Positions 21,440 to 57,598 are shown, counted from the stretch's first letter. The stretch: 64,000 nt of DNA from Candidatus Pacearchaeota archaeon (GCA_017608235.1 JAFCGI010000003.1:44146-108145); one strand, 5' to 3'. Program-made: numbers and translations. The notes: generated from the sequence alone by a model not told the origin.

Positions 21440-21485
21440 ATAAAAAACACTTTTTATTGATTTAAAAACCTTATCCTTATATAAT

Positions 21486-34815: not shown

Positions 34816-35266
34816 TCAAATGAACCTTTGTAGTGCTTGCTTACTTAGAATACTGTTTTACTTAGAATAAATTGCTTAGAATAAATTATAAAATATAATA
34901 AAAAAAATTTATAATCAATCCCCTTTCTGCTGTTCTTTGAACCAGGTTTCCTTATACATTTTCTTTCCAAGAAACCAAGAACCTATTCCTGTTAAGCCAA
35001 TTCCTATCAAAAGCAGCCAACTATAATCACTTTGTACACCAATTCTGATTTGTATGACAAACAGCCAAAAAATTAGAAAAAGTAATGCACCAAAGCTAAT
35101 CATATAATATTTTTTCTCCATGTTTCAGTTAGGAAGATTCATAAAGAGGTTTAGCTTCCTTATTTTCACTCCCTTAAAGAAACGTTATATTTATAAAAGC
35201 CTTTTTAAAGGTTCCTCCCTTTTAAAGACCCTGTAACAAATATAACTTTGTGAGGTGCTTTTAGAA

Positions 35267-35824
35267 ATGGGAAAGGTTTTTGCTAAAACCCAAAATGTTG
35301 TAGTCTCAGCTACAATACATCGAGATCTGCCTTTAGAAAAACTAGCAACAAAATTAGAAGGCGCAGAATATAATCCAGAACAATTTCCAGGATTAATTCT
35401 AAAAATTGAAGAACCAAAAGCTTCTGCTCTTTTATTTAGCTCTGGTAAAATAATATGTACAGGAACCAAATCTATAAAGGAAGCAGGAAAAGCAATAGCA
35501 GCAATTGTAAGATTAATAGAAAAACTTGGCTTAAAAGTTAAAGGCCGACCAGAAATCGAAGTTCAAAACATGGTTGCTTCTGGCAGCGTAGGTGGAAAAC
35601 TAAATTTAAACGAAATAGTATTCAAATTCGAAAACACAGAATATGAACCAGAACAATTTCCAGGATTAGTTTACAAGCTCCCAGAGTCCCATATAACTTT
35701 TTTATTGTTTGGAACAGGAAAGATTGTAATCACAGGAGCCAAATCAGAAAAAGAAATCATCGACTCAGTACATGTTCTTAGAAAACAATTAATAGATGCA
35801 GAAGAACTCGGCGAACCAAACTAA
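35267..35824 (+). CDS. tbp: TATA-box binding protein
   Basis: Two TBP repeats: ATIHRDLPLEKLA…EQFPGLILKI…GKIICTGTKS and ASGSVGGKLNLNEI…EQFPGLVYKL…GKIVITGAKS. ATG at 35267 is preceded by GGTG; the track ORF begins at GTG 35255. Confidence 0.9.
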   Translation: MGKVFAKTQNVVVSATIHRDLPLEKLATKLEGAEYNPEQFPGLILKIEEPKASALLFSSGKIICTGTKSIKEAGKAIAAIVRLIEKLGLKVKGRPEIEVQNMVASGSVGGKLNLNEIVFKFENTEYEPEQFPGLVYKLPESHITFLLFGTGKIVITGAKSEKEIIDSVHVLRKQLIDAEELGEPN

Positions 35825-37212: not shown

Positions 37213-37452
37213 AAAGGCGATGTTAGAGATGACTGTGGCAGATATTCTAGTAGTTTTGGGTTTGAAATAAAAGGGAATGTTGGAAATGATTGTGGTTGGT
37301 ATTCGGAGAACTCTGAATTTAAGATAAATGGGAATGTTAGAGATATGTGTGGTTGTAATTCTGAGAGTTCTAGGTTTAAGGTAAAAGGGAATATTGGAAT
37401 GAATTGTGGTTACGGTTCTAAAAATTCTAAATTTTATCAAAGAGGAAAGCTA
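37213..37452. repeat. Tandem repeat of 4 x about 60 bp; possibly codes a Cys/Gly-rich 20-aa repeat peptide on the + strand
   Basis: Units GGGAATGTTGGAAATGATTGTGG…; the + frame gives (F)xIKGNVxxDCGxxSExSxF four times (track ORF 37210..37467). The - frame gives IPFYLKPRTLRI… repeats (37162..37440). Coding status unresolved. Confidence 0.7.
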
Positions 37453-38214: not shown

Positions 38215-38333
38215 TGGGCCTACTGGGAATTTCTCAGCTATAGGGGTTTCTACTAATGGTTTCCCGAAAAACTGTATCGAACCCAGGTCTTTTGGTCCGC
38301 AACCAAACATTCTATCCACTAGACTATAGGCCC
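38215..38333 (-). tRNA. tRNA-Arg (GCG) with an about 47-nt intron at T-loop 59/60
   Basis: Acceptor GGGCCTA pairs with TAGGCCC; disc A. Anticodon stem TTTGG/CCAAA with loop UUGCGGA. T-stem CTGGG; TTCGAT [insert ACAG…GCTGAGAAAT] T; CCCAG. The D-stem is weak (GTCT/GAAT has one mismatch and two G-U). Confidence 0.6.
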
Positions 38334-38452: not shown

Positions 38453-38607
38453 TAGCCCCGACCGGACATTCTCAACCGCGGATTTCTTCCGCCAATGCTT
38501 CTTTCTAAGAAGGGTTGTTTCGAACCAGTGTCCTAAGGTCCAGAACCTCAGATGCTTGACTTATAGATCTAATAATTTTTTTATTAAATTCACTACACTA
38601 CGGGGCT
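38453..38607 (-). tRNA. tRNA-Gln (CUG) with a 52-nt T-loop 59/60 intron and an additional about 30-nt AT-rich insertion in the D-loop
   Basis: Acceptor AGCCCCG pairs with CGGGGCT; disc A. D-stem GTGT/GCAT. Anticodon stem TGAGG/CCTTA with loop UUCUGGA. T-stem ACTGG; TTCGAA [ACAACCC…GGTTGAGAATG] T; CCGGT. The D-region insert forms the hairpin TTAATAA-AAAAA-TTATTAG. Confidence 0.5.
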
Positions 38608-39619: not shown

Positions 39620-39904
39620 TTAGAATGAATAATAATTTTCAAAAAGTATTTTAGATTTGGAGTTCTTATGCTTTGTTTTTTCTTTTTCTCGCTCCTGTAA
39701 ATGAACATGGTATTTTAAGTGACAAGTATAACAGATTGCTTTTAGATTATCTAAAGTATTTCTACCTCCTTTTGAAATTGGAACTATGTGATGTGCATAT
39801 AATCTTATGCGCGTCTTTCCACAATCTTCGCAAGTATAGTTTGCTAGCTCTTTTACGCGCTTACTTAAATCTTTCCAATAAGGCCATTTATTGCTATAAT
39901 CCAT
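39620..39904 (-). CDS. HNH endonuclease (small, stand-alone)
   Basis: CEDCGKTRIRLYAHHIVPISKGGRNTLDNLKAICYTCHLKYH is an intact HNH/zinc motif. Length 94 aa. Confidence 0.65.
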   Translation of the reverse strand: MDYSNKWPYWKDLSKRVKELANYTCEDCGKTRIRLYAHHIVPISKGGRNTLDNLKAICYTCHLKYHVHLQEREKEKTKHKNSKSKILFENYYSF

Positions 39905-39956: not shown

Positions 39957-40478
39957 CTAATTTAATTCCATATGAAAAATTCTTTTTTTATTTTGGATTT
40001 GTTTATCTTTATCTAATATGTCCAAAGAGAATTTTGTTTGAGTTACTCCTAAGTCTTGCAGAAAGCAAAGACATTGATAATAGATGCTATTTTTAGATTC
40101 TTCTAAATTATAAAGATTTGAAACTGTTAGATTTAGTAATCTTTGTGCTACTAAATTCTCAAGATCTTGTTCTGATATTGCATTGTAATTACTATATGCT
40201 ATTAATTTATGTGCATCGCTTGGGAATATCTCATAATTTATGGAATATACTATAGTTGTATTAGCATTGACTTTATAATTTAGTCTTAAATTATGTTCTC
40301 TTCTATCTATAAATGCTATTTTCTTTTTAAAAAGATAAGATAGATTGCTCTCAGTATAGTGATTATTCAGAGGACCTTTAATTTCATCTTTTGTAATTAT
40401 ATATTTAGTATTTGGATTATTCTGGAGGTACTTTTTAAAGGCCCTCTTTCTAACATTTATTACTTGCATAAGATACAT
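39957..40478 (-). CDS. Hypothetical protein (last gene of the 8-gene operon)
   Basis: 173 aa with no recognisable motif. Start lies 3 nt after the AAA ATPase stop. Confidence 0.4.
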   Translation of the reverse strand: MYLMQVINVRKRAFKKYLQNNPNTKYIITKDEIKGPLNNHYTESNLSYLFKKKIAFIDRREHNLRLNYKVNANTTIVYSINYEIFPSDAHKLIAYSNYNAISEQDLENLVAQRLLNLTVSNLYNLEESKNSIYYQCLCFLQDLGVTQTKFSLDILDKDKQIQNKKRIFHMELN

Positions 40479-40480
40479 GG

Positions 40481-41677
40481 TTATTTATACTCATAGACTA
40501 GATTTACAAGATCTTGTCCTAATCCTCCCTCACCATTCTTTTTAATATGGTCTTTAGCTTCTTTGATCCAATCTAAGAATACAGATGTGTTAGGGTGATA
40601 AAGTGCATATTCTAAATCTCTGTTGTTAATTGGATCTAAGCTATTAATATCATTATCTTTATTTCTAGCTAATGCTAGTTCTGCTGCAATATTACAAATA
40701 TTTTCAATATCTTTTCCAGTATATATACCAAAGTTATTTGATGCTTGTGCTAATAATTTTAAGTTAACATTTGAACTAATTTTACTTTTTTTAAGTTTAA
40801 CTTTATAAATTTCCTCTATAGCTTTAATATCTGGTTGTGGGACAAATAGTGTTCTATTGAATCTTCTTCTTACTGCAGGATCTATCTTCCAGATATAGTT
40901 TGTGGCACCTATTACAATTGCTGCATGATTATTTTCTTTTATATATTCATCAAAATCAGATAATGAAGTTAGTAGCTGATTAGTTTGGGACTGCGCATAA
41001 TGGGATCTAGTCTTGGTTCTCCTGCCTGCTATTGCATCTATTTCATCTAGTAATACTATACATGGAGAGTATTCTTTTGCTTCTTCAAAAATTGCTTTTA
41101 TGTTTTTTTCTGTATTACCTACATATGGATCTAGTATTTCTGCTAAAGACCTATGAATAAAATATGCTCTTGCTTCACCTGCTGCTGCTTCCACACTAAA
41201 AGTTTTACCACATCCTTGCGGGCCATGAAGCAATATGCTTCCTCCGCTAGATAATCCAAGAGCTTGCCTCTTTTGGCTATAAGTTTGATCTCTTAGTGGA
41301 GTTATGATCATATTATAGATTTGTTCTTTGAAGTAATTCATGCCTCCAATGTCTCTAAAAGTTGTTTTTGGTATTTCTGGCTTTCTGAAGTTTTTCTCAT
41401 AGTCTAGATTTCTTCTTGCTTTAGACTTTCTCTGATTTTTTGGAAATGCGGAAGGTTTATCATCTTCTACATAATATATAGCTTCTATCTTTAATGCTCT
41501 TTTTTTAAGATTTAGTGCTTTTTTTTTAGCATCAAAATCTAAGCTTTCTTTGAATCTTTTACTATATTCAGCTACTGCTGCTTGGTAATTTATTAGTGCT
41601 CCATATAGATCGCCTTTTTTTTCTTTACGCCGTGCTTGAATTTCTAATCTGCGTGCAGAGTCAATCAACTTAATCAC
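40481..41677 (-). CDS. MIT-domain AAA+ ATPase of the Vps4/CdvC (meiotic-clade) type
   Basis: N-terminal MIT-like three-helix region RRLEIQARRKEKKGDLYGALINYQAAVAEYSKRFKE…ALKIEAIYY (compare Vps4 …GNYEEALQLYQHAVQYF…). Walker A LLHGPQGCGKT. Walker B IVLLDEIDA. GATNYIWKIDPAVRRRFNRTLFVPQP matches the Vps4 GATNIPW.LD.AIRRRFE.RIYIPLP. Confidence 0.85.
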   Translation of the reverse strand: MIKLIDSARRLEIQARRKEKKGDLYGALINYQAAVAEYSKRFKESLDFDAKKKALNLKKRALKIEAIYYVEDDKPSAFPKNQRKSKARRNLDYEKNFRKPEIPKTTFRDIGGMNYFKEQIYNMIITPLRDQTYSQKRQALGLSSGGSILLHGPQGCGKTFSVEAAAGEARAYFIHRSLAEILDPYVGNTEKNIKAIFEEAKEYSPCIVLLDEIDAIAGRRTKTRSHYAQSQTNQLLTSLSDFDEYIKENNHAAIVIGATNYIWKIDPAVRRRFNRTLFVPQPDIKAIEEIYKVKLKKSKISSNVNLKLLAQASNNFGIYTGKDIENICNIAAELALARNKDNDINSLDPINNRDLEYALYHPNTSVFLDWIKEAKDHIKKNGEGGLGQDLVNLVYEYK

Positions 41678-41742
41678 CTCCTAGCTATAAAATTTCTAAA
41701 TATATAAAATCAGATTCCAAAAGTTCTGACTCTGGAATCATT

Positions 41743-42360
41743 TTACTCTTCTTCATTTGCTAACGAATTTGATCTGTTCTGTACTGGTCTATATATTTGG
41801 TTTATAAAATCATCCATATTCCCTTCAGCATATTGTGGATCATTATCTAGCTGTTCTCTTTCATAAAGAAGTTCTTGCGAATACTCAGATAGTTCTCTCA
41901 TATTCCCTGCATGGTCATATTTTCTTGAGTTACTAATTATACTAAATAGGCTTTTTTTAGGGATTATGCGTCTGCTATGTTTTGCAACTTTGATTAATTC
42001 TCTATCTGCTTTTTTTCCTATAATACCTGCTTCTGCTCTTGCTGTAGCCTCGCATACAATTAAAAATCTTTCAGCCATTAGATCCATAGCAATTCTTGCT
42101 TGCTCATATATCTCTGACTTAACATTAAGCTCTGCTTCTCCTATCTTTTTATCATTATATTTTTTAGCAGCAACTAATGCTTCTTTTCGCTTTTGTCTAT
42201 AATCCTTACATGCTTCTTCATATAGTGCTTCTATTTTAGTTCTTGAGTTAGTAATGGTATCTATTTTTTTCATTTCCCTATGTTCTTTCCTTATTTTTCT
42301 ATTCTGTTCATAACCTAATGCTTTGAGTGCTTTTTTTCTTCTCATTTTAATAACCTCCAT
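41743..42360 (-). CDS. Small charged alpha-helical protein (candidate ESCRT-III/Snf7/PspA-like; speculative)
   Basis: 205 aa. The N-terminal half is basic (MRRKKALKAL…RKIRKEHREMKK). It is predicted helical with heptad character, and the C-terminus is acidic (…DDFINQ…ANEEE). The ORF overlaps neighbours on both sides. Confidence 0.4.
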   Translation of the reverse strand: MEVIKMRRKKALKALGYEQNRKIRKEHREMKKIDTITNSRTKIEALYEEACKDYRQKRKEALVAAKKYNDKKIGEAELNVKSEIYEQARIAMDLMAERFLIVCEATARAEAGIIGKKADRELIKVAKHSRRIIPKKSLFSIISNSRKYDHAGNMRELSEYSQELLYEREQLDNDPQYAEGNMDDFINQIYRPVQNRSNSLANEEE

Positions 42361-43529
42361 CCTCCCCTACTTTCTTTATAGAGGAAAAGATCATGAAGAA
42401 TATCTGTGGCTATGCTGCCTCTGATGTTAAACTTTTTCTCTAGATAATTTGATTTTATATCAAAGGCATCTACATTATTATAGAGAAAACTTGCAAATGA
42501 ATCTGAGGAGCTTGATCTTTTTATCCAAGTAGAAAAATATTCATTTACTTTGTTATGCATGCAAACTAGCTTATTATTTGTAAGGTTTAATAAGAATATA
42601 GAAGATGTTTCAAATTCATTATTTTCAAGTTTACTTAGATCCAAATTTCTACTGAATTTATTTGTTAGAAGTATTTCTAATTTATATGTTAAAAGGTCTT
42701 CATTAGCTCTTAATATTAGTGAGTTTAAATCTGCATTTTTGGCTTCAGATACATACTTGACAGAAATTGCTAATGGAAACTTTCTATTAGGTCTTAGTGT
42801 TAAACCATAATTATCTATTTCTAGTTGTTTTTGGATTTGTTTTCTTTTTGGTTTTTTATATATGTTTGGAGGAATAAATTCTATTGGAGTTTTAATTAGT
42901 TTATATTGCAAATTTTTAATATATGTTTTTGCAAGATCTGGTAATGGCTCTAAGTCTTTTTTTGCTAAAGTTATAGTTTTATTATATATTGAAGTATTAG
43001 GTTCTATTGTTTCTGAGTTTCCTAATCTATAGAATACGGATTGGATGTTTTCTTGCTCTTTTAGGAGCCAAGATTTATTTAGTATATCTAGGTAAGATTC
43101 TAAACTCTCTAGTTCTGAGTTTAAATTGTTTTTAAATTTTAGTTCTGTAGCTGCTTCTGTAAAATATTTTGATAGCTCCTTATCAAAAAAGAAGATATAG
43201 TTTCTGATATTTTGTGCAAGAGCTATATCTTGTAAATGATAATTTTTTTCTGGAGTAGAGATTAGTTTATCTTGAGTATCTATGTTTTTCTTTAAGAGGA
43301 TTGCCTTGTTTAGAGTTGTTTTTATATTTTGAAAATAAGGGTCATTGCTATCTAAATGTTCAGCCATTAGAGATTCTAGATCTGAAATTGTTTGATTTAA
43401 GCTTAAAATTATATTGGATCTTGCATAAGATGCTTTTCTCTCATATCTTGAGATTACTGCCTCCCAAATATGTGGGAGTATCTTAAATCCAATACTTGTT
43501 ATATTTGTTATAGGTTCAATAGTTGTCAT
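42342..43529 (-). CDS. Hypothetical protein (operon member)
   Basis: 395 aa with no known motif. Tightly packed in the operon. Confidence 0.4.
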   Translation of the reverse strand: MTTIEPITNITSIGFKILPHIWEAVISRYERKASYARSNIILSLNQTISDLESLMAEHLDSNDPYFQNIKTTLNKAILLKKNIDTQDKLISTPEKNYHLQDIALAQNIRNYIFFFDKELSKYFTEAATELKFKNNLNSELESLESYLDILNKSWLLKEQENIQSVFYRLGNSETIEPNTSIYNKTITLAKKDLEPLPDLAKTYIKNLQYKLIKTPIEFIPPNIYKKPKRKQIQKQLEIDNYGLTLRPNRKFPLAISVKYVSEAKNADLNSLILRANEDLLTYKLEILLTNKFSRNLDLSKLENNEFETSSIFLLNLTNNKLVCMHNKVNEYFSTWIKRSSSSDSFASFLYNNVDAFDIKSNYLEKKFNIRGSIATDILHDLFLYKESRGGWRLLK

Positions 43530-43765
43530 AGAAATATTAAGACGATACTAATATAAGTATGAATTTAGCTTAAATTTTCTGAATAAAGACTTCATAAGTT
43601 GTAAGATCTTTCAGTAACTTTTATTTTTATCTAGTGGCAATATGCTAAAATATATATTTTATGTATGTGAGCTATATTTGTATATGTATTTTTTATGTTT
43701 TGAACTTATATATTTTATAGATTATTTAAATATGTCTTTTATAGTTCTCAGGCTAATAGAATATT

Positions 43766-45055
43766 CTAGGGTTTATATTTTTTGTACATATTTAGTTTTT
43801 GTATTTTTTCTTGCAGATCTTCATACTTATCAAAATCTTTGTAAATATTAATTCTTGTATTTTTTACACCACTATTTTTTAATAATTTTCCTATAATCAA
43901 TATACTTGACATTCCATAGAAATCCATATCTGTTAAACAAATATTTGTTTCTCCTAAATAAAAATCATATAGATGGTATACAAAATATGCTATTAATATA
44001 TCGTATGTAGTTATTCCCCCCATACCTCTTTTGCTTTTTCTTGCATCTTCTTGGCGAATCTTACGCCTTATACATCTAGTACCTGGAATTTTTTTAAGAA
44101 CTATATCTATAGCACGTCTATTTTTCTTAAAGCCTTCTAAAAAATCTAAAATCGATATAGTATAGTCTCTAAATCTATAATTAACTACTACACTAAGATC
44201 ATTCTTTACGTGAACATACTTAAAATTATTTTTATTGGTATGAATCACTAACTGGGATAAATATTCTGTTATAATTAGATTTTTTTTATAATGCTCTGCT
44301 TCTTCTTTTGCAAAGTTTAAAAAATCTGATATTATTTCTTTTTGTAATTCATAAATTTCTTTTTGTGACTTATAATTTAACTTTGGATTATTTATTCTTT
44401 CTTCTAAATTAGAAGAATATAGTCTAGAAGGATGTAGTTTTTTTCTTTTTTTAATAAGCGACTTTAATATTTCCTCTTGTCTGTGTGCAGAATCATAATT
44501 GGGATCAATTTCAATAGATTTTCTAATATAATTGAGCGCTTCTTCATACCTCCCAGACCATTTTAAAGCTAGTGCTTTATTATAAAACAAAATAGGATTA
44601 GGTAGTTTTTCTAGAGTTAATGCTTTGTCATAGTATACTATTGCTTCTTTATATTTTTTAAGTTCAGTAAGTATTTTACCTTTTAAATTATAATACTTAG
44701 AATTATTTGGGTCTATTTTAATAGCTTTGTTAATTATTTCTAATGACTCCTGATGATTGTTGGCTTCCCTTACTTTCTTATAATATGCATTTGCAAATTG
44801 TGGATCTATAGATATAGATGGAGCGAGCTTTTTGGCAGAATCCATATCTTTTAGGGCGCTATCTGTTTGATTTAATTTTAAAAGAATTAATGCTCGCTGA
44901 TGGTATGCTCTAGCACTTTCAGAATATTCTGATATGTAGTTATTGATTATTCTCAGAGCTTTTTGATATTCTTTAAGCTTATAAAGTGTTCTTGCTTCTG
45001 CAAACCAGGCATCTTGTTCTATATCCATATTAGTTCTTCCAAGCTTTTTATACAT
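43766..45055 (-). CDS. TPR-repeat protein with a C-terminal domain of unknown function
   Basis: Five or more 34-aa TPR-like units (…AYHQRALILLKLNQTDSALKDMDSAKKLAP…, …NAIKIDPNNSKYYNLKGKILTELKKYKEAIVYYDKALTLEK…). Length 429 aa. Confidence 0.55.
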   Translation of the reverse strand: MYKKLGRTNMDIEQDAWFAEARTLYKLKEYQKALRIINNYISEYSESARAYHQRALILLKLNQTDSALKDMDSAKKLAPSISIDPQFANAYYKKVREANNHQESLEIINKAIKIDPNNSKYYNLKGKILTELKKYKEAIVYYDKALTLEKLPNPILFYNKALALKWSGRYEEALNYIRKSIEIDPNYDSAHRQEEILKSLIKKRKKLHPSRLYSSNLEERINNPKLNYKSQKEIYELQKEIISDFLNFAKEEAEHYKKNLIITEYLSQLVIHTNKNNFKYVHVKNDLSVVVNYRFRDYTISILDFLEGFKKNRRAIDIVLKKIPGTRCIRRKIRQEDARKSKRGMGGITTYDILIAYFVYHLYDFYLGETNICLTDMDFYGMSSILIIGKLLKNSGVKNTRINIYKDFDKYEDLQEKIQKLNMYKKYKP

Positions 45056-47777
45056 TTTCTCTTACCTTGCGATAACAATCGTAAGCTTCTTTAAATTTAC
45101 CTTGTGCTTCGAGTACTTGACCTTTTTGATAGTTTGCTTGTTTATTTTCTGGTTCTAGATATAAAATTGAATCTAAGGTGCTCATTGCATGAGCATATAG
45201 TCTTCGATTGCTATAATACTTTGATATAAAAATTGCTTTATCTAAGTACCCTAAAAAATCCGAATAATAATGAAGTCTGTGCTTTCTTTTATTTTTAACA
45301 AGCTGCCTTTTCATTAGGCTCATAATTGCTGCGCCTATTGCAAATTCTAAATAAGAATAATTTACCAATCCTCCTATTAGTAATACTTCTAATATGTTTT
45401 TTGGATAGATTTTTCGTTTTAATTTCTTAATTTTAGGTGTATGTTTGACTAAAGTATCTAATGCTGTTCTTTTGAAATATCTTTTACCAAGTTTTTTATT
45501 GATTTCTTCAACACTTACTGGTTCCTCATATATTTTTCTCTCATTTAGACCTTGTCGTACAGATATATTTATTTTAGTATCATCTGCAGTATATGTTATT
45601 CTATAATTTTTAAATCTTAAAGTCATACTATTTTTATATATTTGCTCTATCGAAAATGCAGACTTATATAGCCTTGCTTCCATTAATACTAATCTTAATA
45701 TATTTTTAGAAGAAAATCTACAGTTTCTTAGCTTTGATATTTTAGTCTTTGGCAATATTATGTTATATTGCTTTAGAACTGCATCCATATGAATCGGGCT
45801 TAAATCTAGAGCTTTTTTTGGGTCAGTTTTAAAAAGGTACCAAGCCTCTGCATTATATCTGTTTAATTCTAAAGCGCGAGTATATGATTTTATTCTTTGA
45901 TCAGATTCTTGGCGACTTGCTAGATCTAAATAGGCATTAGCTAGTTCTGAAGAAACTTCAGAATTTTTTGCTAATGCTATTGATTTCTCAAATAAATAAA
46001 TTGCTTCCTCTAAATTTTTAGAAGATTTCCGTTTATTATATATTTTATGCCCTAGTTCATAGAATGCTTCTGCTGCAATCTTTTTGATTTCTTTATTAGA
46101 AGAATAACTTAGAGCTTTTTCGAAATGTTTGATGGCTTTTCTATGTTTTTTCTTATTTAGTACTTTTTTAGCTTGTCTAAAATGAATTTGGGAGATATAG
46201 CTTTCTGCAGCAAAATTTTTGTAAGGTAGTATTGCTTCCAAATAGTTTAGGGCAGACTTATACTTTTTTTTATTTATAAGCTGTTTTGCTAGGCTAAACC
46301 AAATTTTTGGGCTGATATCATTATTTTTCTTTAGATAAATACGCTTAGCTCTCTTACTAAACTTATATGCTTTTTTATGCTGTCCATCTTTTTCTAATGC
46401 TAATGCCTTATAATATAAAGCCTCATAATTCTTAGAATCTAGTTCTATAGCCTTTTCAGAGTTTATGATTGCTCGTTTATAACTATTTAATTCAATATTT
46501 GTTTTAGCTTCTAAAATTCTTAGCTGAATTTGATTTGGATTATAGTCTAATGCTCTATTTATTAATCTTAATTTTCGTTTCAAAAAGATACTATTTTTTT
46601 TATCTTCTGGTTTTGTTTGCAAATTTGCAAAACTAAAATAGGCATCTGCTAGATCTGGTTTTATTTCATTTGCTCTATCTGGTGCAAATACTAATATTTC
46701 TTCAAGAATTTTTATTCTTTCTTTGAGGTTAGTTTCAGTTTTAGAAATGCCTATTCTTGCGTTTATAGAAAAAGGATCATATTTTAATGTTTGATCAAAG
46801 AATTTTTTAGCTTTTTTAAGATTTTTTTGTCTTAGAGCTAACTTTCCTCGTATCTCTAAAGTATATGGGTCTAAATTTTGTTCTAGAAGTTCTTCTAATT
46901 TCATATCTGCAGACGTATCAGCAAATTCATCAATAGAATTATTATTTGAGAATTGAAGCTTACTAATTTGCTCGCTAAAAAATAAATTTAGTGCTGTAAG
47001 CTGATCTATTTTTTTATAGGCTAAGTCTATGAAGTTATCTATTTTTTTATTGCATCTTTCTTTGTTAATCTTTGATTTATTATTTGGCGATAACTTTTTA
47101 CTTAATTCGTAATGTTTTGATATAATTTTTTTTTCTTTATTTTTAAGTTTAACTATATCTAAAATTACTTGAAGATAGTCTAGAACTTCTTTTTGTTTTT
47201 CTAAAAAATCAGATTGTATGTCTTGATATTTTATACTTAGTGCATTACTTAACTTGTATATTTTCTTATTCCAAGAAATATTTGACTTTAAATCTTTTTT
47301 TAATTGTCTTAGATTTTTAGCTTTTAGTATTTTTCTTACTTTTTGATCTTTTTTTGCAACCAAAGATGTTACAAATGGATTATTAAAATATTTAGTAACT
47401 GTATAATTTTGGCTGTCTTCTGGCATAATTATTTCTTGTCCAAATGATAATGCAGTATTTAGAAAAATCTCATTTAGGTCTGAAAATAAATGCTTATATA
47501 GTTCATAACTATGAGCTAATATATGTGCATTGTCTAGTATTTTAAATTCTTTTGCACCTAGATTAGCACTCTCTTCTAATATATCAAGCATATATAATGC
47601 TTTATTTAGTTTTTTATCTCTTCGTCTATTATAGAAGTTTAAATATGATTGATATTTTATATCTTGTTTTGCTATATTTTTTTTAGTAATCTTTTGTAAT
47701 CTAGCTTTGATTTTTTTTAGATTCTTCTTTCTACGCTTATTTTTCTTTGCTTCAGATATAAATTCCTTCCTATTCAT
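45048..47777 (-). CDS. Large TPR-repeat protein (909 aa) with an N-terminal Lys-rich coiled-coil region
   Basis: Many TPR units (…YEALYYKALALEKDGQHKKAYKFSKRAKRI…, …AEAWYLFKTDPKKALDLSP…). The C-terminal region has a hydrophobic segment LLIGGLVNYSYLEFAIGAAIMSLM. Confidence 0.55.
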   Translation of the reverse strand: MNRKEFISEAKKNKRRKKNLKKIKARLQKITKKNIAKQDIKYQSYLNFYNRRRDKKLNKALYMLDILEESANLGAKEFKILDNAHILAHSYELYKHLFSDLNEIFLNTALSFGQEIIMPEDSQNYTVTKYFNNPFVTSLVAKKDQKVRKILKAKNLRQLKKDLKSNISWNKKIYKLSNALSIKYQDIQSDFLEKQKEVLDYLQVILDIVKLKNKEKKIISKHYELSKKLSPNNKSKINKERCNKKIDNFIDLAYKKIDQLTALNLFFSEQISKLQFSNNNSIDEFADTSADMKLEELLEQNLDPYTLEIRGKLALRQKNLKKAKKFFDQTLKYDPFSINARIGISKTETNLKERIKILEEILVFAPDRANEIKPDLADAYFSFANLQTKPEDKKNSIFLKRKLRLINRALDYNPNQIQLRILEAKTNIELNSYKRAIINSEKAIELDSKNYEALYYKALALEKDGQHKKAYKFSKRAKRIYLKKNNDISPKIWFSLAKQLINKKKYKSALNYLEAILPYKNFAAESYISQIHFRQAKKVLNKKKHRKAIKHFEKALSYSSNKEIKKIAAEAFYELGHKIYNKRKSSKNLEEAIYLFEKSIALAKNSEVSSELANAYLDLASRQESDQRIKSYTRALELNRYNAEAWYLFKTDPKKALDLSPIHMDAVLKQYNIILPKTKISKLRNCRFSSKNILRLVLMEARLYKSAFSIEQIYKNSMTLRFKNYRITYTADDTKINISVRQGLNERKIYEEPVSVEEINKKLGKRYFKRTALDTLVKHTPKIKKLKRKIYPKNILEVLLIGGLVNYSYLEFAIGAAIMSLMKRQLVKNKRKHRLHYYSDFLGYLDKAIFISKYYSNRRLYAHAMSTLDSILYLEPENKQANYQKGQVLEAQGKFKEAYDCYRKVRENV

Positions 47778-48760
47778 TCTTCTTCAGTAGCTTTTTCGCA
47801 CAGCGAGTCCAGCGCATAATAAATAGCTTCTTCTTCAAAATCTTCTCCAATCATTGAGTCTAAAAATTTATCATAGAAATCTGTGTGAATACTGCTTAGA
47901 TCTAATGTATCTGAAAGTACAAAATCTCTTGCCCTATTTAAGATAAGCTTGTTAAGTTCCATTAATTCATTTATTCTGTAATATGAGAAGCTGCAAAATT
48001 CAGTAATTATTTTAGTTTCTAGATTTCTATTATACTTTGCATCTTCACTATCTTTGCTACATAATTTGGCATCAGCTTCATAAAAAGAGATTAATACTTC
48101 TGCTTCGTCTAGCTTTTGATAAATCCTTTTAATAACTTTTTTTCTATAACTAATAACTTTTTTTTGCAGATTTATAAATTTATTATGTAATCTCTTAGTC
48201 CTTTCTTCACTTTCTAGCATATTTGTTGGTATAATTCTATTCCATTTTAAACTAGATTTTAAGAATTTTCTAATATATTTAAAATTAATATCTTCTTTTT
48301 TAAGTTCTGGCTTATTTATATTTAAGGTAAAGAAAGCATCTTTGTATTCATTAAGCAATATATTATCTTTTGTATCATACTTTAATTCCTTAAGGAATGA
48401 TTCTGTTAGATAACTTAATTCCTCTTTTAAATTATTAGTCCATATAGGAGCATTATTATCATAATTAAATACATATCCATCAACCCATGTTCCTACTGGG
48501 TGCGATATGTTAGCACCCCTTTTTGCATTATCTGAGATTTTGCTATTTAGTTTAATTATATTTTCAAAACACTTATCTAGCTGCTTATAATATTCACTTC
48601 TAATTTCTTTATGTTTTTCTGCAAAAGAATTAAATTTTGTTCTTGCTTTTTTTGCTTTTTTTTTTCTTTTATTATATTTTTTACTCTCCATATTTAATCT
48701 TTTTCTAGTTTTAGCTAATTGACTCATAATATCACCTTTGGAGATCTTTAGATATATCAT
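47774..48760 (-). CDS. Hypothetical coiled-coil protein (operon member)
   Basis: 328 aa. Lys-rich N-terminus. No known motif. Confidence 0.4.
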   Translation of the reverse strand: MIYLKISKGDIMSQLAKTRKRLNMESKKYNKRKKKAKKARTKFNSFAEKHKEIRSEYYKQLDKCFENIIKLNSKISDNAKRGANISHPVGTWVDGYVFNYDNNAPIWTNNLKEELSYLTESFLKELKYDTKDNILLNEYKDAFFTLNINKPELKKEDINFKYIRKFLKSSLKWNRIIPTNMLESEERTKRLHNKFINLQKKVISYRKKVIKRIYQKLDEAEVLISFYEADAKLCSKDSEDAKYNRNLETKIITEFCSFSYYRINELMELNKLILNRARDFVLSDTLDLSSIHTDFYDKFLDSMIGEDFEEEAIYYALDSLCEKATEEE

Positions 48761-50744
48761 ACATTTCAGACTGTAGCCTGTCTAAAGTTACATTATATCT
48801 TCTTAGAGTAGAAACATATTTTGTGATTCCCATGCTAATTTGTAGATTGTCTTTTGCAGCATATAATATGCTATTTACTTTCCGAATCTCTTTTATTTCG
48901 CATGTTATTGCCTGAACTATAGATTTAAGATTTGAAATTAAATCTTCATGCAATTTTTCTTTGGCAGAACTATATGATTCATATTCTTCTTTTTTTTGTT
49001 TGGTCTCATAATATATATATTTGGAAAATTTTTTTCTATGTTGTTTTATTTTTTTAAGTTCTTGTTTTATAATTTTAGATATAGTTTTTTTTCTCTTTCT
49101 CAGAATTTGTTTCTTATTAAATCTAATGCCTAACTTAGATAATTCATTCCAAATCTCAGGCTCATTCTTTCCATGAATTAAATAATTTTGGATATGTTTT
49201 ACTTTTTCTTTTTTATTTTTAGTTAAGTATATGAGTTCCAAAAATGTTTCTGCTTTTGTATTAAATGTGTTAAAATTATTTGGCTTTATTTCTTTAGAAA
49301 GTATTGTTAATGCTGAATATGCGTTTATATTATATGCTTCAGCTTTAATCTTATCCTCTACTACTTCTGCAAGAGTTATCTGTGCATGAGCTAAGGATAG
49401 TACTATATCATTATAGTCTGATTGTGCTTTTTCTTTTGGGAAAGGGCTTTCTTCTGCTTCAACCTTCTGTTTAGTATTTTCCTGCGCATTCAATAGACCC
49501 TTCATTCCACGTTCAAGAAGATCTAAAAGTTTTGTTTTTTCGACTTTACTTAAATTTTGAGAATAGTTTCTTAGAAATCCAGATAGTTCTGAAATATAAA
49601 ATGCTGCTATACTAGTAATTTCTAATTTTGAGTTAGAAATAACTAATAAGTCATCTGCTAATTCTATAAGAGTAGTTCTGAAATATTCTTTTACTTTTTC
49701 ATAATTATGATGCTTATTTTCATTTATTTCTGACAATTTAAAGTTAATAGCGCTTCTTAAGGTATTTACATAATTAACTACTCTCTCAAGAATTTCTTGA
49801 TCAATTTTAAGATCTTTTCCAAAATTAAATAAGTGCGTTTTTGGAATTTTCTCTGGTATTGTTCCTCTTTTTATACTTAGCGCCTCTTGGAATAAGTCTG
49901 CATGCGAATGAAATTCCTCAGGGCGGAATAAATACCTAGTGCATTCTTTTTCTAGCTCTATAAGATTTTTCTTAGGTATTACTATATCTGTAGATGCTAT
50001 GTAATATGAATGAGCCATTCTGCAAATAGCTTTAGATAATTCTGCTACTGCTTCTTCTCTTTTTTCATCATCATCTTTATTTTTTAGGATGTCTGCTAAG
50101 CTTGAAAGAGTATATCTTGTATATATCAAAAATAATTCGAATGCCTCATATCTTGGGATATTTATTTTTGGCAGATCTTCAAATTCTTCAAATACATCAT
50201 AGCCCATTAAAATTTTATGGCAATTCCAAATATAAGAGAAAAGGAATTTACTAGCTAAACCTCGCCAATTATTAATTTGTTTTTTAGATCTACCGATTGC
50301 TCCACTTTTAAATGCATCTATATTTTTAGGATTTATGCTATTCTTATCTCTTACCCATATTTGCGCCTTAACTTTACATCCGAGGTCTGCATTTATCTTT
50401 TCAAGATCTTCATTCAGCTTATCTTCTAAAGTGTTAATTTCTGTTTCTATGTCTTTAATTTTGTTAAATTCAATTGATCCATAATGTTCCTTATATAGTT
50501 CAGGATTATCTTTGTATTCCTCTAAGGCATTATATACATTTGGATTAACTAAGAAATCTATATCAAAATCAGAATATTTATTCATGTCCCCTGAATAAAT
50601 GCTACCAGAACTAAATGCGCTATGGCAATAAAAGCAAGAAGCATCATCATCTTCTATTGAAAATTTAGAGTCCATAAAGTAATTGCAAAATTTGTCTTCT
50701 AGAAAGCTTGGAATATCTTGAATAGTTTGGATAGGTTTTGACAT
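48732..50744 (-). CDS. Large protein with an N-terminal Pol-beta-superfamily nucleotidyltransferase signature and a long helical C-terminal region
   Basis: SAFSSGSIYSGDMNKYSDFDIDFLV fits hG[GS]x9-13DhDh (GS + 10 aa + DFDID). Preceded by a CFYCHS Cys/His cluster. A candidate third acidic residue lies in IWVRDKN. Length 670 aa. First gene of the operon. Confidence 0.55.
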   Translation of the reverse strand: MSKPIQTIQDIPSFLEDKFCNYFMDSKFSIEDDDASCFYCHSAFSSGSIYSGDMNKYSDFDIDFLVNPNVYNALEEYKDNPELYKEHYGSIEFNKIKDIETEINTLEDKLNEDLEKINADLGCKVKAQIWVRDKNSINPKNIDAFKSGAIGRSKKQINNWRGLASKFLFSYIWNCHKILMGYDVFEEFEDLPKINIPRYEAFELFLIYTRYTLSSLADILKNKDDDEKREEAVAELSKAICRMAHSYYIASTDIVIPKKNLIELEKECTRYLFRPEEFHSHADLFQEALSIKRGTIPEKIPKTHLFNFGKDLKIDQEILERVVNYVNTLRSAINFKLSEINENKHHNYEKVKEYFRTTLIELADDLLVISNSKLEITSIAAFYISELSGFLRNYSQNLSKVEKTKLLDLLERGMKGLLNAQENTKQKVEAEESPFPKEKAQSDYNDIVLSLAHAQITLAEVVEDKIKAEAYNINAYSALTILSKEIKPNNFNTFNTKAETFLELIYLTKNKKEKVKHIQNYLIHGKNEPEIWNELSKLGIRFNKKQILRKRKKTISKIIKQELKKIKQHRKKFSKYIYYETKQKKEEYESYSSAKEKLHEDLISNLKSIVQAITCEIKEIRKVNSILYAAKDNLQISMGITKYVSTLRRYNVTLDRLQSEMYDISKDLQR

Positions 50745-55441: not shown

Positions 55442-55570
55442 ATAGATGTAAAAATGACTTAAGAATAAAAGGTTTTCCACAGGAAACATTGGAAATTAAG
55501 GCGTTTGGAATACAAATATTTTAAATATAGGAAAGTCTTCAAGATTTTTAATGGCTTTGGAGATGCGCTC

Positions 55571-57598
55571 ATGCTAGATTATGAAGATATGATTACAAAG
55601 TTTAGAACTTTCTTTGAGAGATATTATTATAATTCTCTTCTGACTAATATTAAGAAAGGCAAGAAATATATTAATATTAAATTTGGAGATTTAGCTAAGT
55701 TCGACTTAGACTTATCTGAGGAGTTGATTTCTAAGCCTCAGGAGATTTTAGATTTAGCTGAGAAGTCTCTAAAAGAGTTTGATATTCCTGAAGCTGAGCA
55801 TCCTATTAGAGTTAGAGTTATTGATTTGCCTCAAGCCTATTATCTTTCTATTCGAAATATTCGAAGTAGTCATTTGGGAAAGTTAATTTGGACTGAGGGT
55901 TTGATAAGACAGGCATCTGATATCAGACCTAAAGTTACGATTGCTACATTTGAGTGTCCTAGCTGTAATGCACAGATTGTTGTAGAACAAAGAGATACAA
56001 GTTTCAAGGAACCTGCAAGATGTCAGTGTGGCAGGAAAGGTAAATTTAGACTATCTAGCAAGAAGATGGTTGATGTTCAGAGATTAGTTATAGAAGAAGT
56101 CCCTGAGAGTTTAAGCGGAGGGGAGCAGCCAAAAAGAATCAGAGCATATCTTTCAGAAGATCTTTTGGATGCAGATCTAGAGAAGAGAAGATATCCTGGA
56201 AATAAAGTTAGGATTGCTGGTGTGATTAAAGAGGTTCCAGTATCTACAAGAACTGGAGGTAGAAGTACAACCTATGATTTAATGATTGATGCGAATTCTG
56301 CAGAAACTGTTGAAGAAGAGTTTGGAGAACTTCAGATATCTGCTAAAGATGAAGAGTTAATTAAGGATCTAGCTTCAAAGTCAAATATTTTTGAAAAGTT
56401 AGCTAGGAGCATTGCTCCAAGTATTTATGGGTTGAATGAGATTAAGCAGGCGATTGTTTTGCAGTTGTTTGGAGGTACAAGAAAAACTAGAGAGGATGGT
56501 ACAAGTACAAGAGGAGATATTCATATATTCTTGGTTGGAGATCCTGGAGCAGGCAAGTCTCAGATTTTAAGTTATGTTTCTAATCTAGCACCAAAAGCAA
56601 GAATGGTAACTGGAAGAGGCGCTAGCGCAGCTGGAATCACAGCAAGTGTTGTTAAGGATGAATTTATGGGCGGCTGGGCTTTAGAAGCTGGCGCACTTGT
56701 TTTAGCGAATAATGGAATAGCATTGCTAGACGAACTAGATAAAATCTCAAGAGAGGATACTTCAGCAATGCATGAAGCTATGGAGCAACAGCGTGTTACT
56801 ATTAGCAAAGCAAATATTCAAGCAACTCTAAGAGCACAAACTTCTATTCTTGCGGCTGCAAATCCAAAGTTTGGAAGGTTTGATCCTTATAGTCCTATAG
56901 CTTCACAAATAGATCTTCCTCCCACGCTGATTAACAGGTTTGATCTTATCTTTACTGTGAGAGATATTCCAAACATAGAAAAAGATGAATTAATAGCTAG
57001 GCATGTTTTGGAGTTACATAGAGATGATGATGCTAAAAAAGCAGATATTAGTCCTGAGGTAATTAGGAAATATATTGCATATGCAAAGCAGCATTGCAAG
57101 CCAGTGTTAAGTTCTGGTGCTCTAGATGAGATTAGAGAGTTTTATGTTAATTTAAGAAGTACAGCTGCCTTGGAAGATTCTGAAGTAAAATCAATTCCAA
57201 TTTCTGCAAGACAGCTTGAAGCTCTAATCAGGCTGTCGGAAGCAAGCGCTAGAATCAGGCTTTCTGATAAAGTAACCAAAAGGGATGCACAGAGAGCAAT
57301 TGGATTGCTAAGAAGCTGTATGGAAGCAGTAGCACTAGATGTGGAAACTGGTAAGTTTGATATAGATAGAATTGCTACAGGAATCACAGCTACTGATAGA
57401 AGTAGGATTACGATAGTTAGAAGAATTATTGATGAGTTAGAAGGTAGAGTTGGAAAAAACATTCCAATTTCAGATATTCTAAATGAAGCAGAGAATGAAG
57501 GACTAGAAAAAGCTAAGGCAGAGGATGTTATTGAAAACTTAAAGAAAAAAGGAGACATCTTTGAACCTAAGCCTGGATTGATTCAGAAGATTGGTTAG
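55571..57598 (+). CDS. mcm: MCM replicative helicase
   Basis: Zn finger CPSCN…CQCG. Walker A IHIFLVGDPGAGKSQ. Walker B and arginine finger region ALLDELDK…SILAAANP. Winged-helix C-terminus. ATG at 55571; the track ORF starts at TTG 55505. Confidence 0.9.
   Translation: MLDYEDMITKFRTFFERYYYNSLLTNIKKGKKYINIKFGDLAKFDLDLSEELISKPQEILDLAEKSLKEFDIPEAEHPIRVRVIDLPQAYYLSIRNIRSSHLGKLIWTEGLIRQASDIRPKVTIATFECPSCNAQIVVEQRDTSFKEPARCQCGRKGKFRLSSKKMVDVQRLVIEEVPESLSGGEQPKRIRAYLSEDLLDADLEKRRYPGNKVRIAGVIKEVPVSTRTGGRSTTYDLMIDANSAETVEEEFGELQISAKDEELIKDLASKSNIFEKLARSIAPSIYGLNEIKQAIVLQLFGGTRKTREDGTSTRGDIHIFLVGDPGAGKSQILSYVSNLAPKARMVTGRGASAAGITASVVKDEFMGGWALEAGALVLANNGIALLDELDKISREDTSAMHEAMEQQRVTISKANIQATLRAQTSILAAANPKFGRFDPYSPIASQIDLPPTLINRFDLIFTVRDIPNIEKDELIARHVLELHRDDDAKKADISPEVIRKYIAYAKQHCKPVLSSGALDEIREFYVNLRSTAALEDSEVKSIPISARQLEALIRLSEASARIRLSDKVTKRDAQRAIGLLRSCMEAVALDVETGKFDIDRIATGITATDRSRITIVRRIIDELEGRVGKNIPISDILNEAENEGLEKAKAEDVIENLKKKGDIFEPKPGLIQKIG

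Follow-up and report, generated by a model that had tools for sequence, protein, structure and literature searches.

A lineage-specific gene cluster encoding a putative Vps4-like AAA+ ATPase and TPR proteins in a DPANN archaeon

Results

Organization of the locus

ORF calling in the window (the whole 64,000-nt stretch of DNA that was analyzed) identified eight co-directional minus-strand ORFs, g8 to g1, at exactly the coordinates given in a preliminary description of this DNA (Table 1). That description had also reported tight packing throughout, with overlaps of 0–29 nt or 3-nt gaps, and a single functional module. Four junctions do overlap (g8/g7 by 29 nt, g7/g6 by 4 nt, g6/g5 by 8 nt and g4/g3 by 19 nt, or 4 nt with the better g3 start), and a 2-nt gap lies between g2 and g1. 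The packing is not uniform, however: 236 nt separate g5 from g4, and 65 nt (74 nt with the better g2 start) separate g3 from g2. These two gaps break the gene row into g8-g7-g6-g5 and g4-g3 | g2-g1, and we conclude that the eight genes do not form a single continuous operon. The 236-nt gap, together with the pattern of ribosome-binding sites, also weakens the proposal of a single functional module.

Table 1. Coordinates of the features at the locus, counted from the first letter of the window
Feature	Coordinates	Strand	Size	Description
TBP	35255–35824			
Lineage-specific segment	35868–55489		~19.7 kb	between TBP and MCM
tRNA-Arg(GCG)	38215–38333			identified after intron splicing
tRNA-Gln(CUG)	38453–38607			identified after intron splicing
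HNH nuclease, stand-alone	39620–39904	-	94 aa	PF01844, E 4.7e-13
g1	39957–40478	-	173 aa	no Pfam match
g2, AAA+ ATPase	40481–41677	-	398 aa	PF00004 (Pfam AAA), E 7.6e-35
g2 three-helix bundle	41459–41674	-		aa 2–73, N-terminal (AF2)
Hairpin	41713–41739	-	10 bp	followed by T-rich tail; between g3 and g2
g3	41743–42360	-	205 aa	N-terminal part basic, C-terminal part acidic
g4	42342–43529	-	395 aa	recognizable domain not found
Intergenic gap g5-g4	43530–43765	-	236 nt	AT-rich, TATA-like sequence
g5	43766–45055	-	429 aa	TPR_2, E 1.8e-24
g6	45048–47777	-	909 aa	TPR_2, E 6.4e-17, and related families
g6 hydrophobic segment	45303–45395	-		aa ~795–825
g7	47774–48760	-	328 aa	Lys-rich; N-terminus basic, C-terminus acidic
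g8	48732–50744	-	670 aa	Pol-beta-type NTase-like motif in N-terminal ~140 aa
g8 motif GS-x10-DFDID	50554–50604	-		aa 47–63
MCM	55505–57598			

The gap between g5 and g4 holds no minus-strand ORF in an ORF scan, no stable RNA fold (fold z-score +0.96) and no Rfam match, and it is likely an internal promoter region for g4, with which the downstream unit probably begins. In the upstream unit, g8 probably comes first, because this gene has no Shine-Dalgarno site and is preceded, ~25–30 nt upstream, by an AT-rich TATA-like stretch. The hairpin between g3 and g2, which comes from a scan that found no more terminator-like sites overall than shuffled sequences did, may act as an attenuator and so control the ratio of g3 to g2.

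Among the eight genes, only g3 and g2 are preceded by GGAGG Shine-Dalgarno motifs. These two genes have a housekeeping-like GC content (0.319), against 0.25–0.28 in the other six, where the drop sits at codon positions 1 and 2. No other gene of the cluster combines a strong ribosome-binding site with a base composition like that of housekeeping genes, and g3 and g2 therefore look like its constrained core. Third-position codon usage (GC3) is native throughout the cluster and equals the value found elsewhere in the genome. The host is classified as a Pacearchaeota/Woesearchaeota-like DPANN archaeon, because the window contains an archaeal SRP RNA and because the MCM and TBP it encodes share 50–75% identity with Pacearchaeota/Woesearchaeota proteins.

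Genomic context and conservation

A stand-alone HNH nuclease gene and two tRNA genes lie near the cluster, as previously described. The HNH gene follows g1 in the same orientation after 52 nt and may be co-transcribed with the cluster; both tRNA genes were missed by ARAGORN and Rfam because of their non-canonical introns. The HD-domain gene reported on the other side is a weak match to PF01966 (E 0.002), whose cut-off of 22 bits it misses with 18.8 bits.

The cluster, these flanking genes, several ORFans and a relocated eIF2-beta gene make up a lineage-specific segment inserted between TBP and MCM, which are a conserved pair elsewhere. Of 80 related DPANN loci, 52 have TBP at most 400 nt upstream of MCM, and in all 67 loci where TBP was found the distance is 3.3 kb or less. 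Neither repeats nor an integrase flank the segment, and a PHROGs search of the cluster gave no viral or defense hint. A gene-neighborhood search, suggested earlier as a check on conservation of the module, with lack of co-occurrence in other genomes named as a refuting outcome, was negative over the sets covered: homologues of the eight proteins were absent from the MCM neighborhoods of 80 related DPANN genomes (1.25 Mb), and none of g8 was found among 1.84e9 representative proteins. Six cluster genes are singletons in the public protein collection, and most partner proteins resemble nothing in ~15 billion known sequences.

The AAA+ ATPase

The g2 product more likely starts at a TTG at 41668, with AGGAGGTGA upstream, which would give 395 aa. 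It carries a Walker A (GPQGCGKT), a Walker B (LLDEID) and a YVG pore loop, and when it was aligned with 20 Cdc48 D2 domains, Walker A/B, the pore-loop Gly, the sensor-1 Asn and both Arg fingers were invariant. Its second region of homology (SRH; ...DPAVRRRFNRTLFVPQPD) aligns without the two-residue ‘PG’ insertion. By these motifs g2 is a single-cassette classical AAA+ ATPase with intact catalytic residues; a single cassette of the classical clade in which Walker A/B, the pore loop and the Arg fingers are all intact is what is expected of Vps4/CdvC. PADLOC returned generic AAA matches for the cluster, and its IetA and TRIP13 models match g2, the latter weakly (E 8e-13 and 4e-10). We assign g2, from its sequence, to the classical clade and not to the Pch2/TRIP13 type.

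The preliminary description had called g2 a Vps4/CdvC-type MIT-AAA protein, and its layout bears this out in part. In an AF2 model (overall pLDDT 82.8), helices 2–20, 24–45 and 48–73, each at pLDDT ~90 without any alignment cover, form a confidently predicted N-terminal bundle that a disordered linker (aa ~71–92) connects to the AAA cassette, as in the Vps4/CdvC layout. g2 aligns with the CdvC profile over its full length (aa 3–374), and the MIT assignment draws on the structure prediction together with the ~10 extra bits that the first 95 aa contribute, on the CdvC profile only. The best single-domain score of the C-terminal half was obtained with katanin p60 (56 bits, vs. 44–47 for p97 D2). 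The family assignment did not hold, since g2 scores 134.2 bits with NCBIfam CdvC (NF041006) against a cut-off of 650, and CDC48, PAN and FtsH models score as high or higher. No MIT domain was detected in aa 1–100 by Pfam, NCBIfam or PDB sequence search, and pairwise comparison with approximate MIT sequences was not significant (z 1.6 and 0.4). The C-terminal oligomerization helix Vps4_C (PF09336) had no Pfam match in g2, where a C-terminal helix (aa 368–380) is predicted at only pLDDT ~66.

The partner proteins

TPR repeats were confirmed in the two proteins previously described as such, g5 and g6, which their domain content marks as TPR scaffolds. In g6, a ‘domain X’ (aa 1–270) is followed by a TPR array (~aa 300–640), a region without an assigned domain and a C-terminal TPR; the region without a domain contains a single, borderline hydrophobic segment (Kyte-Doolittle maximum 1.44). 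g5 consists of an N-terminal TPR array (aa ~15–200) and a 230-aa C-terminal domain with no Pfam match, and is weakly similar to g6 aa 661–850 (z 2.9). g7, which ends in ...ATEEE and has no Pfam match, aligns with domain X, the N-terminal ~270 aa of g6 (Smith-Waterman z = 10.1, 0/300 shuffles; tblastn E 5e-5), and the similarity identifies the two as paralogues.

The g3 product is more likely the 200-aa form that starts at an ATG at 42345, 13 nt downstream of a GGAGG; the public sequence collection holds it in this form. Its N-terminal 140 aa are basic (pI 10.0, net +16) and its C-terminal 60 aa acidic (pI 4.4, net -8), ending in ...ANEEE, and its gene lies directly upstream of g2. No match was obtained to Snf7 (PF03357) or PspA_IM30 (PF04012), or indeed to any Pfam family even at E<=10, nor in NCBIfam, PHROGs or the PDB sequence search. 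g3 is a candidate polymer or substrate of the g2 ATPase and, in size, charge polarity and position only, the leading ESCRT-III-like candidate. The ESCRT-like reading proposed earlier stays unproven: those three features fit it, and the Snf7/PspA signal is missing. For g4, Pfam, NCBIfam and PHROGs gave no domain, and PADLOC gave faint matches to Cas5 models only (E 0.006 and 0.016); the gene has no Shine-Dalgarno site and is a singleton cluster in the public protein collection.

The GS-x10-DFDID motif reported in g8 is present, and the hG[GS]-x9-13-DhD form reads GSIYSGDMNKYSDFDIDF (aa 47–64). By chance, this loose form occurs in 6% of shuffled operon proteomes and 1.8% of shuffled g8 sequences. 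Pfam NTP_transf_2 scored 14.0 bits with the whole protein and 17.0 bits (E 0.008) with aa 1–340, both below the gathering score of 21 bits. Of the Pol-beta NTase active-site signature claimed for g8, the motif stands and the family match does not reach threshold. AlphaFold modeling followed by Foldseek, the check put forward in the preliminary description, was uninformative: the AF2 single-sequence model was unusable (pLDDT 43), and Foldseek with it found no match at E<0.27. The predicted strand order is compatible with an NTase core, in which D134 would be a candidate third carboxylate; the protein beyond the N-terminal ~140 aa is predicted to be helical. A word-based search found g8 itself only.

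Comparison with known systems

Vps4/CdvC and ESCRT-III occur in Cdv and other archaeal ESCRT loci (PMC11188069). Like these, the present locus has, immediately before the ATPase gene, a gene for a ~200-aa protein whose core is basic and whose tail is acidic, and it also encodes lineage-specific accessory proteins. Unlike them, it has an ATPase far below the CdvC family score and without Pfam MIT or Vps4_C, a g3 without Snf7/PspA similarity, and TPR and NTase-like proteins in place of a winged-helix, CdvA/PRC-barrel or adaptin-like partner. Its host also belongs to DPANN, a group reported to lack ESCRT-III (PMC7619361), which lowers the prior for an ESCRT-like reading.

Bacterial operons of the type ‘MIT+Vps4-like AAA -> TPR+TM(s)’, such as Oter_1429 (PMC11237479), and the metagenomic loci L081 and L082 share with our cluster an AAA protein with a short helical N-domain, one or more TPR proteins and no recognizable Snf7. 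The best single-domain match to g2 found was the bacterial AAA of L081 (34% over 291 aa, 174 bits, extending into the C-terminal tail). In L081 and L082, a TPR + multi-transmembrane protein is encoded directly downstream of the AAA. The bacterial operons have their TPR gene, with ~six clear TM helices, immediately downstream, whereas here g5 and g6 are upstream of the ATPase gene, with two genes and the 236-nt gap in between; the L081 TPR-TM protein has nine windows above Kyte-Doolittle 1.6, against a single borderline hydrophobic segment at most in g5/g6. The ‘RPGR’ insertion missing from g2 is present in the SRH of L081, and the two N-domains show no similarity (z -1.2). With no TPR multi-TM gene immediately after the AAA, the cluster does not fit this operon type.

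Among defense systems, type III CBASS (CD-NTase + HORMA + TRIP13) likewise combines an NTase-motif protein and an AAA+ ATPase in one cluster. The locus does not match it: PADLOC found neither CD-NTase nor HORMA, the TRIP13 models score far below classical-clade models, and no effector is fused or adjacent here except the generic HNH. IetAS (IetA AAA ATPase + IetS protease) is not matched either. The IetA/IteA models cover most of g2 (114 and 108 bits), but IteA, at 107.7 bits against an NCBIfam cut-off of 510, falls below generic AAA models, and no IetS-like serine protease was found in the locus by Pfam or PADLOC. As in minimal nucleotidyltransferases (MNT/KNTase-type Pol-beta NTases), g8 aa 44–66 fit hG[GS]-x9-13-DhDh followed by a hydrophobic strand; unlike them, g8 has a sub-threshold Pfam score, a ~55-aa helical insertion following the DxD strand, a further ~500 aa of helical sequence without homologues, and no HEPN partner.

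Discussion

We tentatively propose that the locus is a lineage-specific Vps4-like remodeling module that acts on the helical and TPR proteins it encodes. The N-domain of g2 would act like an MIT domain and dock C-terminal motifs that are short and helical or acidic; the sequence ...EEE closes both g3 and g7. Hexameric g2 would thread the docked partners through its YVG pore, and this threading would disassemble or recycle an assembly of g3, in an ESCRT-III-like role, and the helical/TPR proteins g8–g5, an assembly perhaps located at the membrane via the single hydrophobic segment of g6. In the weakest step, g8 would modify a partner as a regulatory nucleotidyltransferase, provided that its N-terminal NTase-like domain is real. 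Because two genes and the 236-nt gap stand between the TPR genes and the ATPase gene, co-function is assumed, not shown, and because the full gene set is not known from any other genome, co-occurrence lends it no support.

That missing co-occurrence also fits a different reading, which we consider rather unlikely: two or three unrelated same-strand units with no common mechanism, in which a general-purpose AAA+ chaperone/unfoldase (g2, perhaps with g3 and g1) would sit beside a fast-evolving, lineage-specific helical/TPR block (g8–g5) with a different role, e.g., host or surface interaction. The TATA-like sequence in the gap before g4, the hairpin-containing gap before g2 and the restriction of Shine-Dalgarno sites to g3 and g2 are consistent with separate units, as is the lower GC of the other genes at codon positions 1 and 2, which is typical of weakly constrained proteins. 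Yet all eight genes (nine with the HNH) point the same way and overlap at four junctions, the duplication seen in g7 and g6 shows that the upstream block evolves as a unit, and the pairing of AAA with TPR recurs in the closest g2 relatives found and in the literature.

A stronger form of our proposal, a true but highly diverged Cdv/ESCRT system for cell division or vesicles with g3 as ESCRT-III, g2 as Vps4 and g4 + g1 as CdvA or ESCRT-II-like components, appears improbable. The MIT-like bundle, linker and AAA of g2, its full-length alignment with the CdvC profile, and the charge polarity and position of g3 (PMC11188069) point toward it. No Snf7/PspA, winged-helix, PRC-barrel or Vps4_C signal was found anywhere in the cluster, however, and ESCRT-III is the component reported absent from DPANN (PMC7619361). 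A division machine would moreover be expected in sister genomes, which is at odds with the lack of g8 homologues among the representative proteins and of all eight near MCM in the 80 genomes.

The nucleotide-signaling or defense island suggested in the preliminary description, with g8 as an active NTase for sensing invasion or producing a signal, TPR sensors/scaffolds, a TRIP13- or IetA-like AAA+ regulator and HNH + HD effectors, found little support and is the most doubtful, its motif, NTase-compatible secondary-structure order, E 0.008 match, IetA and TRIP13 hits, flanking HNH and weak HD genes, and synteny-breaking, lineage-specific position near tRNA genes being set against a sub-threshold NTase with an unusable model and no Foldseek match, PADLOC matches to generic AAA without CD-NTase, HORMA, IetS or any non-AAA defense component, an IetA score (114 bits) below generic CDC48, PAN and FtsH scores, PHROGs without viral or defense hints, genome-like GC3, and the lack of flanking repeats or integrase.

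The remodeling module built around g2 remains our tentative choice. It is improbable that the locus is the first ESCRT-type (Vps4 + ESCRT-III-like polymer) membrane-remodeling system in DPANN; its polymer subunit would then have diverged beyond sequence recognition, and TPR scaffolds and an NTase-fold regulator would replace winged-helix, CdvA or adaptin-like partners.

An eight-gene cluster in a rearranged segment of a DPANN chromosome

The window is a piece of archaeal chromosome (~30% GC) carrying an archaeal SRP RNA and the housekeeping genes for IleRS, TBP, eIF2-beta, MCM and PCMT. The host had been described as a DPANN archaeon, and this is borne out because its MCM and TBP share 50–75% identity with their counterparts in Pacearchaeota, Woesearchaeota and Nanoarchaeia MAGs. 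As a comparison set we used 80 MCM loci from related DPANN genomes, together 1.25 Mb, in which the gene order IleRS-TBP-MCM-o231-eIF2beta-o101 is kept. TBP lies upstream of MCM within 400 nt in 52 of the 80 loci and within 3.3 kb in all 67 where TBP was found, and eIF2-beta follows MCM within 3 kb in 51. The distance between TBP and MCM in the window is 19.7 kb, and the intervening segment holds the cluster, two tRNA genes, a stand-alone HNH nuclease gene, an HD-domain gene, several other ORFans, eIF2-beta and o101 (a 101-aa ORF). These last two genes, normally downstream of MCM, are inverted and sit at the two ends of the segment. We therefore conclude that the cluster lies in a lineage-specific, rearranged segment.

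Recent import of the cluster, with foreign composition, was rejected because GC3 in the cluster (0.18) does not differ significantly from that in the rest of the window (0.20). The lower GC of the cluster lies in the first and second codon positions, the pattern that drift under AT pressure should give in proteins under weak constraint. Neither att-like flanking repeats nor an integrase were found around the segment. Between eIF2-beta and a 100-aa ORF we observed a 57-nt tandem repeat (3.5 copies, 71% identity), which would encode 19-aa repeats (...ISNIPFYLKP...) on the minus strand, in a putative 92-aa TTG-started ORF.

Among the neighbours of the cluster, the HNH gene was confirmed (PF01844, E 4.7e-13) and the HD domain is weak (18.8 bits, cut-off 22). 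Both tRNA genes proposed nearby exist: missed by ARAGORN and by Rfam at the gathering score when unspliced, they were called normally once their non-canonical introns had been spliced in silico. A marginal match adjoining the SRP RNA may represent one more tRNA that is truncated or has an intron.

Features of the window (nt; gaps and overlaps are with the next gene downstream)
Feature	Position	Strand	Detail
Marginal tRNA match	19505-19568	-	30.4 bits, model positions 7-64
Archaeal SRP RNA	21170-21442	-	Rfam, 127.5 bits
P-loop/AAA-like ORF	21486-22679	-	397 aa
TBP-MCM span	35255-57598		
57-nt tandem repeat	37213-37411		
tRNA-Arg(GCG)	38215-38333	-	47-nt intron 38228-38274, just after the T-loop
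tRNA-Gln(CUG)	38453-38607	-	30-nt D-loop intron 38561-38590; 52-nt intron after the T-loop 38466-38517
HNH nuclease	39620-39904	-	
g1	39957-40478	-	52 nt gap to HNH
g2 (AAA+ ATPase)	40481-41677	-	2 nt gap to g1
Hairpin and T-rich tail	41713-41739	-	10-bp stem
g3	41743-42360	-	65 nt gap to g2; 74 nt with the better start 41668
g4	42342-43529	-	19 nt overlap with g3; 4 nt with the better-supported start 42345
g5	43766-45055	-	236 nt gap to g4
g6	45048-47777	-	8 nt overlap with g5
g7	47774-48760	-	4 nt overlap with g6
g8	48732-50744	-	29 nt overlap with g7

Gene layout and expression signals

The eight co-directional minus-strand ORFs of the preliminary description (g8 to g1, from upstream to downstream) are all present, with identical coordinates. 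Their proposed tight packing holds for the four overlapping junctions and the g2–g1 junction, but not for g5–g4 and g3–g2, where wider gaps intervene. The g5–g4 gap is AT-rich, contains no minus-strand ORF and has neither a stable RNA fold nor an Rfam match. A scan for bacterial-type promoters and terminators returned no more sites than in shuffled sequences. Ribosome-binding sites of the GGAGG type precede g3 and g2 only; g8 and g4 have none, and an AT-rich TATA-like sequence lies ahead of each, which fits g8 and g4 being the leaderless first genes of two units. The hairpin in the g3–g2 gap, just upstream of the strong g2 ribosome-binding site (AGGAGGTGA), may be a candidate attenuator setting the g3:g2 ratio.

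The g2 ATPase is Vps4-like

The g2 product is a classical AAA+ protein with a single cassette (PF00004, E 7.6e-35); aligned with 20 Cdc48 D2 domains, it shows conservation at every catalytic position. Whole-protein profile scores place it in no clear subfamily (CDC48 154, PAN 151, FtsH 147 and CdvC 134 bits, each far below its cut-off). Several features nonetheless speak for the Vps4/meiotic side of the classical clade. CdvC is the only profile that aligns with g2 from end to end (aa 3–374), and removal of aa 1–95 lowers its score by 10 bits and leaves those of CDC48, PAN and FtsH unchanged. The SRH (DPAVRRRFNRTLFVPQPD) is without the PG insertion of two residues found in p97, and the C-terminal half has its best single-domain score with katanin p60.

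An AF2 model of g2 (pLDDT 82.8), for which the alignment was trimmed to Cdc48 D2 and gave the N-terminus no cover, predicts three helices at aa 2–73 (pLDDT ~90) followed by a disordered linker (aa 71–92). Foldseek matches of the model in the PDB are dominated by p97 and uninformative on the N-domain. No MIT match was obtained with aa 1–100 alone in Pfam, NCBIfam or PDB sequences, and pairwise comparison of the N-domain with approximate MIT sequences was not significant. Pfam gave no Vps4_C match either. Of the MIT-AAA ATPase of Vps4/CdvC type originally proposed, the AAA domain, a predicted three-helix N-domain and the linker thus stand, but since MIT and Vps4_C matches are absent and the CdvC score falls far short of its cut-off, we call g2 Vps4-like and not a member of the Vps4/CdvC family.

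A homologue search with g2 returned the protein itself and then only Cdc48-type proteins, at up to 40% identity over the AAA domain. The window encodes a second P-loop/AAA-like ORF, 32% identical to g2 over the Walker region, which is probably a housekeeping ATPase of PAN or RFC type; g2 would then be an extra, non-housekeeping paralogue.

An AAA and TPR pairing recurs outside a cluster found in one genome

A metagenome scan gave the best single-domain match found for g2 (34% over 291 aa, 174 bits, through the C-terminal tail), the ATPase of two near-identical high-GC bacterial loci (metagenome Ga0308157; L081, 9611–12517, and L082, 9677–12562). This AAA ATPase has a TPR-like N-terminus, and the L081 and g2 N-domains show no significant pairwise similarity. 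Directly after it comes a TPR protein that has several strong TM segments, so that AAA and TPR are paired here as in the cluster. This recurring pairing is the only outside evidence that ties g2 to the TPR proteins g5 and g6.

Occurrence of the cluster in other genomes had been put forward as a test of the proposed module; nothing similar to any of its eight proteins was found in the 80 related DPANN MCM loci. An exhaustive phmmer search of 1.84 billion cluster representatives, standing for ~15 billion proteins, returned no g8 homologue at E<=0.001, and a word-indexed search returned g8 itself only. The proteins g8, g6, g5, g4, g3 and the 395-aa g2 are each the sole member, or one of two, of their own 90% cluster. 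With the set in a single genome only, a shared function gains no support from comparison. The main rival to a joint module, that the two units are functionally unrelated, would suit this distribution and the break at the g5–g4 gap, and the AAA and TPR pairing speaks against it; we consider it rather unlikely.

Partner proteins and the ESCRT comparison

Both g5 and g6 are genuine TPR proteins by Pfam, as first described. A collinear paralogue of g7 makes up the first ~270 aa of g6 (Smith-Waterman z 10.1, 0/300 shuffles; tblastn E 5e-5), and the upstream block therefore grew by internal duplication. Similarity between the g5 C-terminus and g6 aa 661–850 is weak (z 2.9), and no paralogy was detected between the g8 C-terminus and the g7/g6 N-terminus, between g4 and g1, or between g3 and g7. 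One borderline hydrophobic stretch occurs in g6 (aa ~795–825), and no credible TM or signal sequence in the other cluster proteins. No matches were obtained for g1, g4, g7, the g5 C-terminal domain or the C-terminal 330 aa of g8, and sub-domain Pfam scans (g4 N and C halves, g1, g7, g5 C-terminus, g6 N-terminus and middle, g8 C-terminus) gave nothing credible. Two faint matches of g4 aa 198–295 to PADLOC Cas5 models (E 0.006 and 0.016, ~14 bits) are probably chance; no further CRISPR-Cas signal was found near g4.

The 200-aa g3 protein combines a basic 140-aa core (pI 10.0, net +16) with an acidic 60-aa tail (pI 4.4, net −8), and g7 likewise has a basic N-terminus and an acidic C-terminus. Both end in EEE-COOH (SLANEEE in g3, EKATEEE in g7), resembling the acidic C-terminal peptides bound by carboxylate-clamp TPR domains as well as the tails engaged by meiotic-clade AAA ATPases; as a speculation, these tails could dock into a TPR groove or onto the ATPase. 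The base composition of g3 and g2 is housekeeping-like. The g3 gene lies directly upstream of g2, the position usually held by the ESCRT-III gene relative to the ATPase in archaeal ESCRT loci (PMC11188069). No match of g3 to Snf7, PspA or other profiles was obtained even at E<=10. A Cdv/ESCRT system in the strict sense, which the position of g3 would suit, is improbable in our estimate because the cluster shows no ESCRT-III signal and ESCRT-III is reported absent from DPANN (PMC7619361).

The NTase signature of g8

The NTase motif assigned to g8 is present (GSIYSGDMNKYSDFDIDF), but Pfam NTP_transf_2 stays below its cut-off of 21 over that stretch (14.0 bits with whole g8, 17.0 bits with aa 1–340). 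Shuffling gave a match to a loose regular expression for the motif in 1.8% of cases for g8 and in 6% for operon proteomes. An AF2 model of aa 1–340 built without an alignment reached pLDDT 43 and gave no significant Foldseek match (none better than E 0.27); the predicted order of helices and strands would suit a minimal NTase into which a helical stretch of ~55 aa is inserted. Viral contigs gave no match to g8 or g6, and PHROGs returned a TPR match only. A defence or NTase-signalling function, to which the motif had pointed, is less probable again, as PADLOC detected neither a CD-NTase nor a HORMA protein, and no defence component outside the AAA class.

Discussion

We tentatively read the cluster as a Vps4-like remodelling module, a possibility that we place first while holding it short of probable. 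Such a module would use the three-helix N-domain of g2 to dock partner proteins, which its YVG pore would then unfold. The prime candidate for a polymerising substrate would be g3, and the upstream unit could supply scaffolds or co-substrates in its TPR and helical proteins, possibly near the membrane; g8 might have some role as well. Of this picture, the g2 fold and its intactness, the TPR proteins, the g7/g6 duplication and the gene layout are shown, and docking, polymer formation, membrane association and a part for g8 are inferred. Nothing beyond domain anatomy links the parts. The ATPase and the TPR proteins are of known kinds; their combination, and the six orphan partners, were not found described in the literature and databases searched.

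Known from one genome and made up mostly of orphan proteins, the cluster is for now a lead and not a field-changing result. The ESCRT-III/Vps4 machinery is considered as old as the last archaeal common ancestor. The DPANN superphylum is reported to lack it (PMC7619361). In this archaeon, a Vps4-like ATPase beside a small ESCRT-III-shaped protein and new TPR partners could mean that DPANN retain ESCRT-like remodelling in a form no longer recognisable, or that Vps4-like ATPases have taken on a new task, the remodelling of TPR-based scaffolds, as has been suggested for some bacteria. Each of these, if true, would bear on division or on membrane shedding and remodelling in ultra-small symbiotic archaea.
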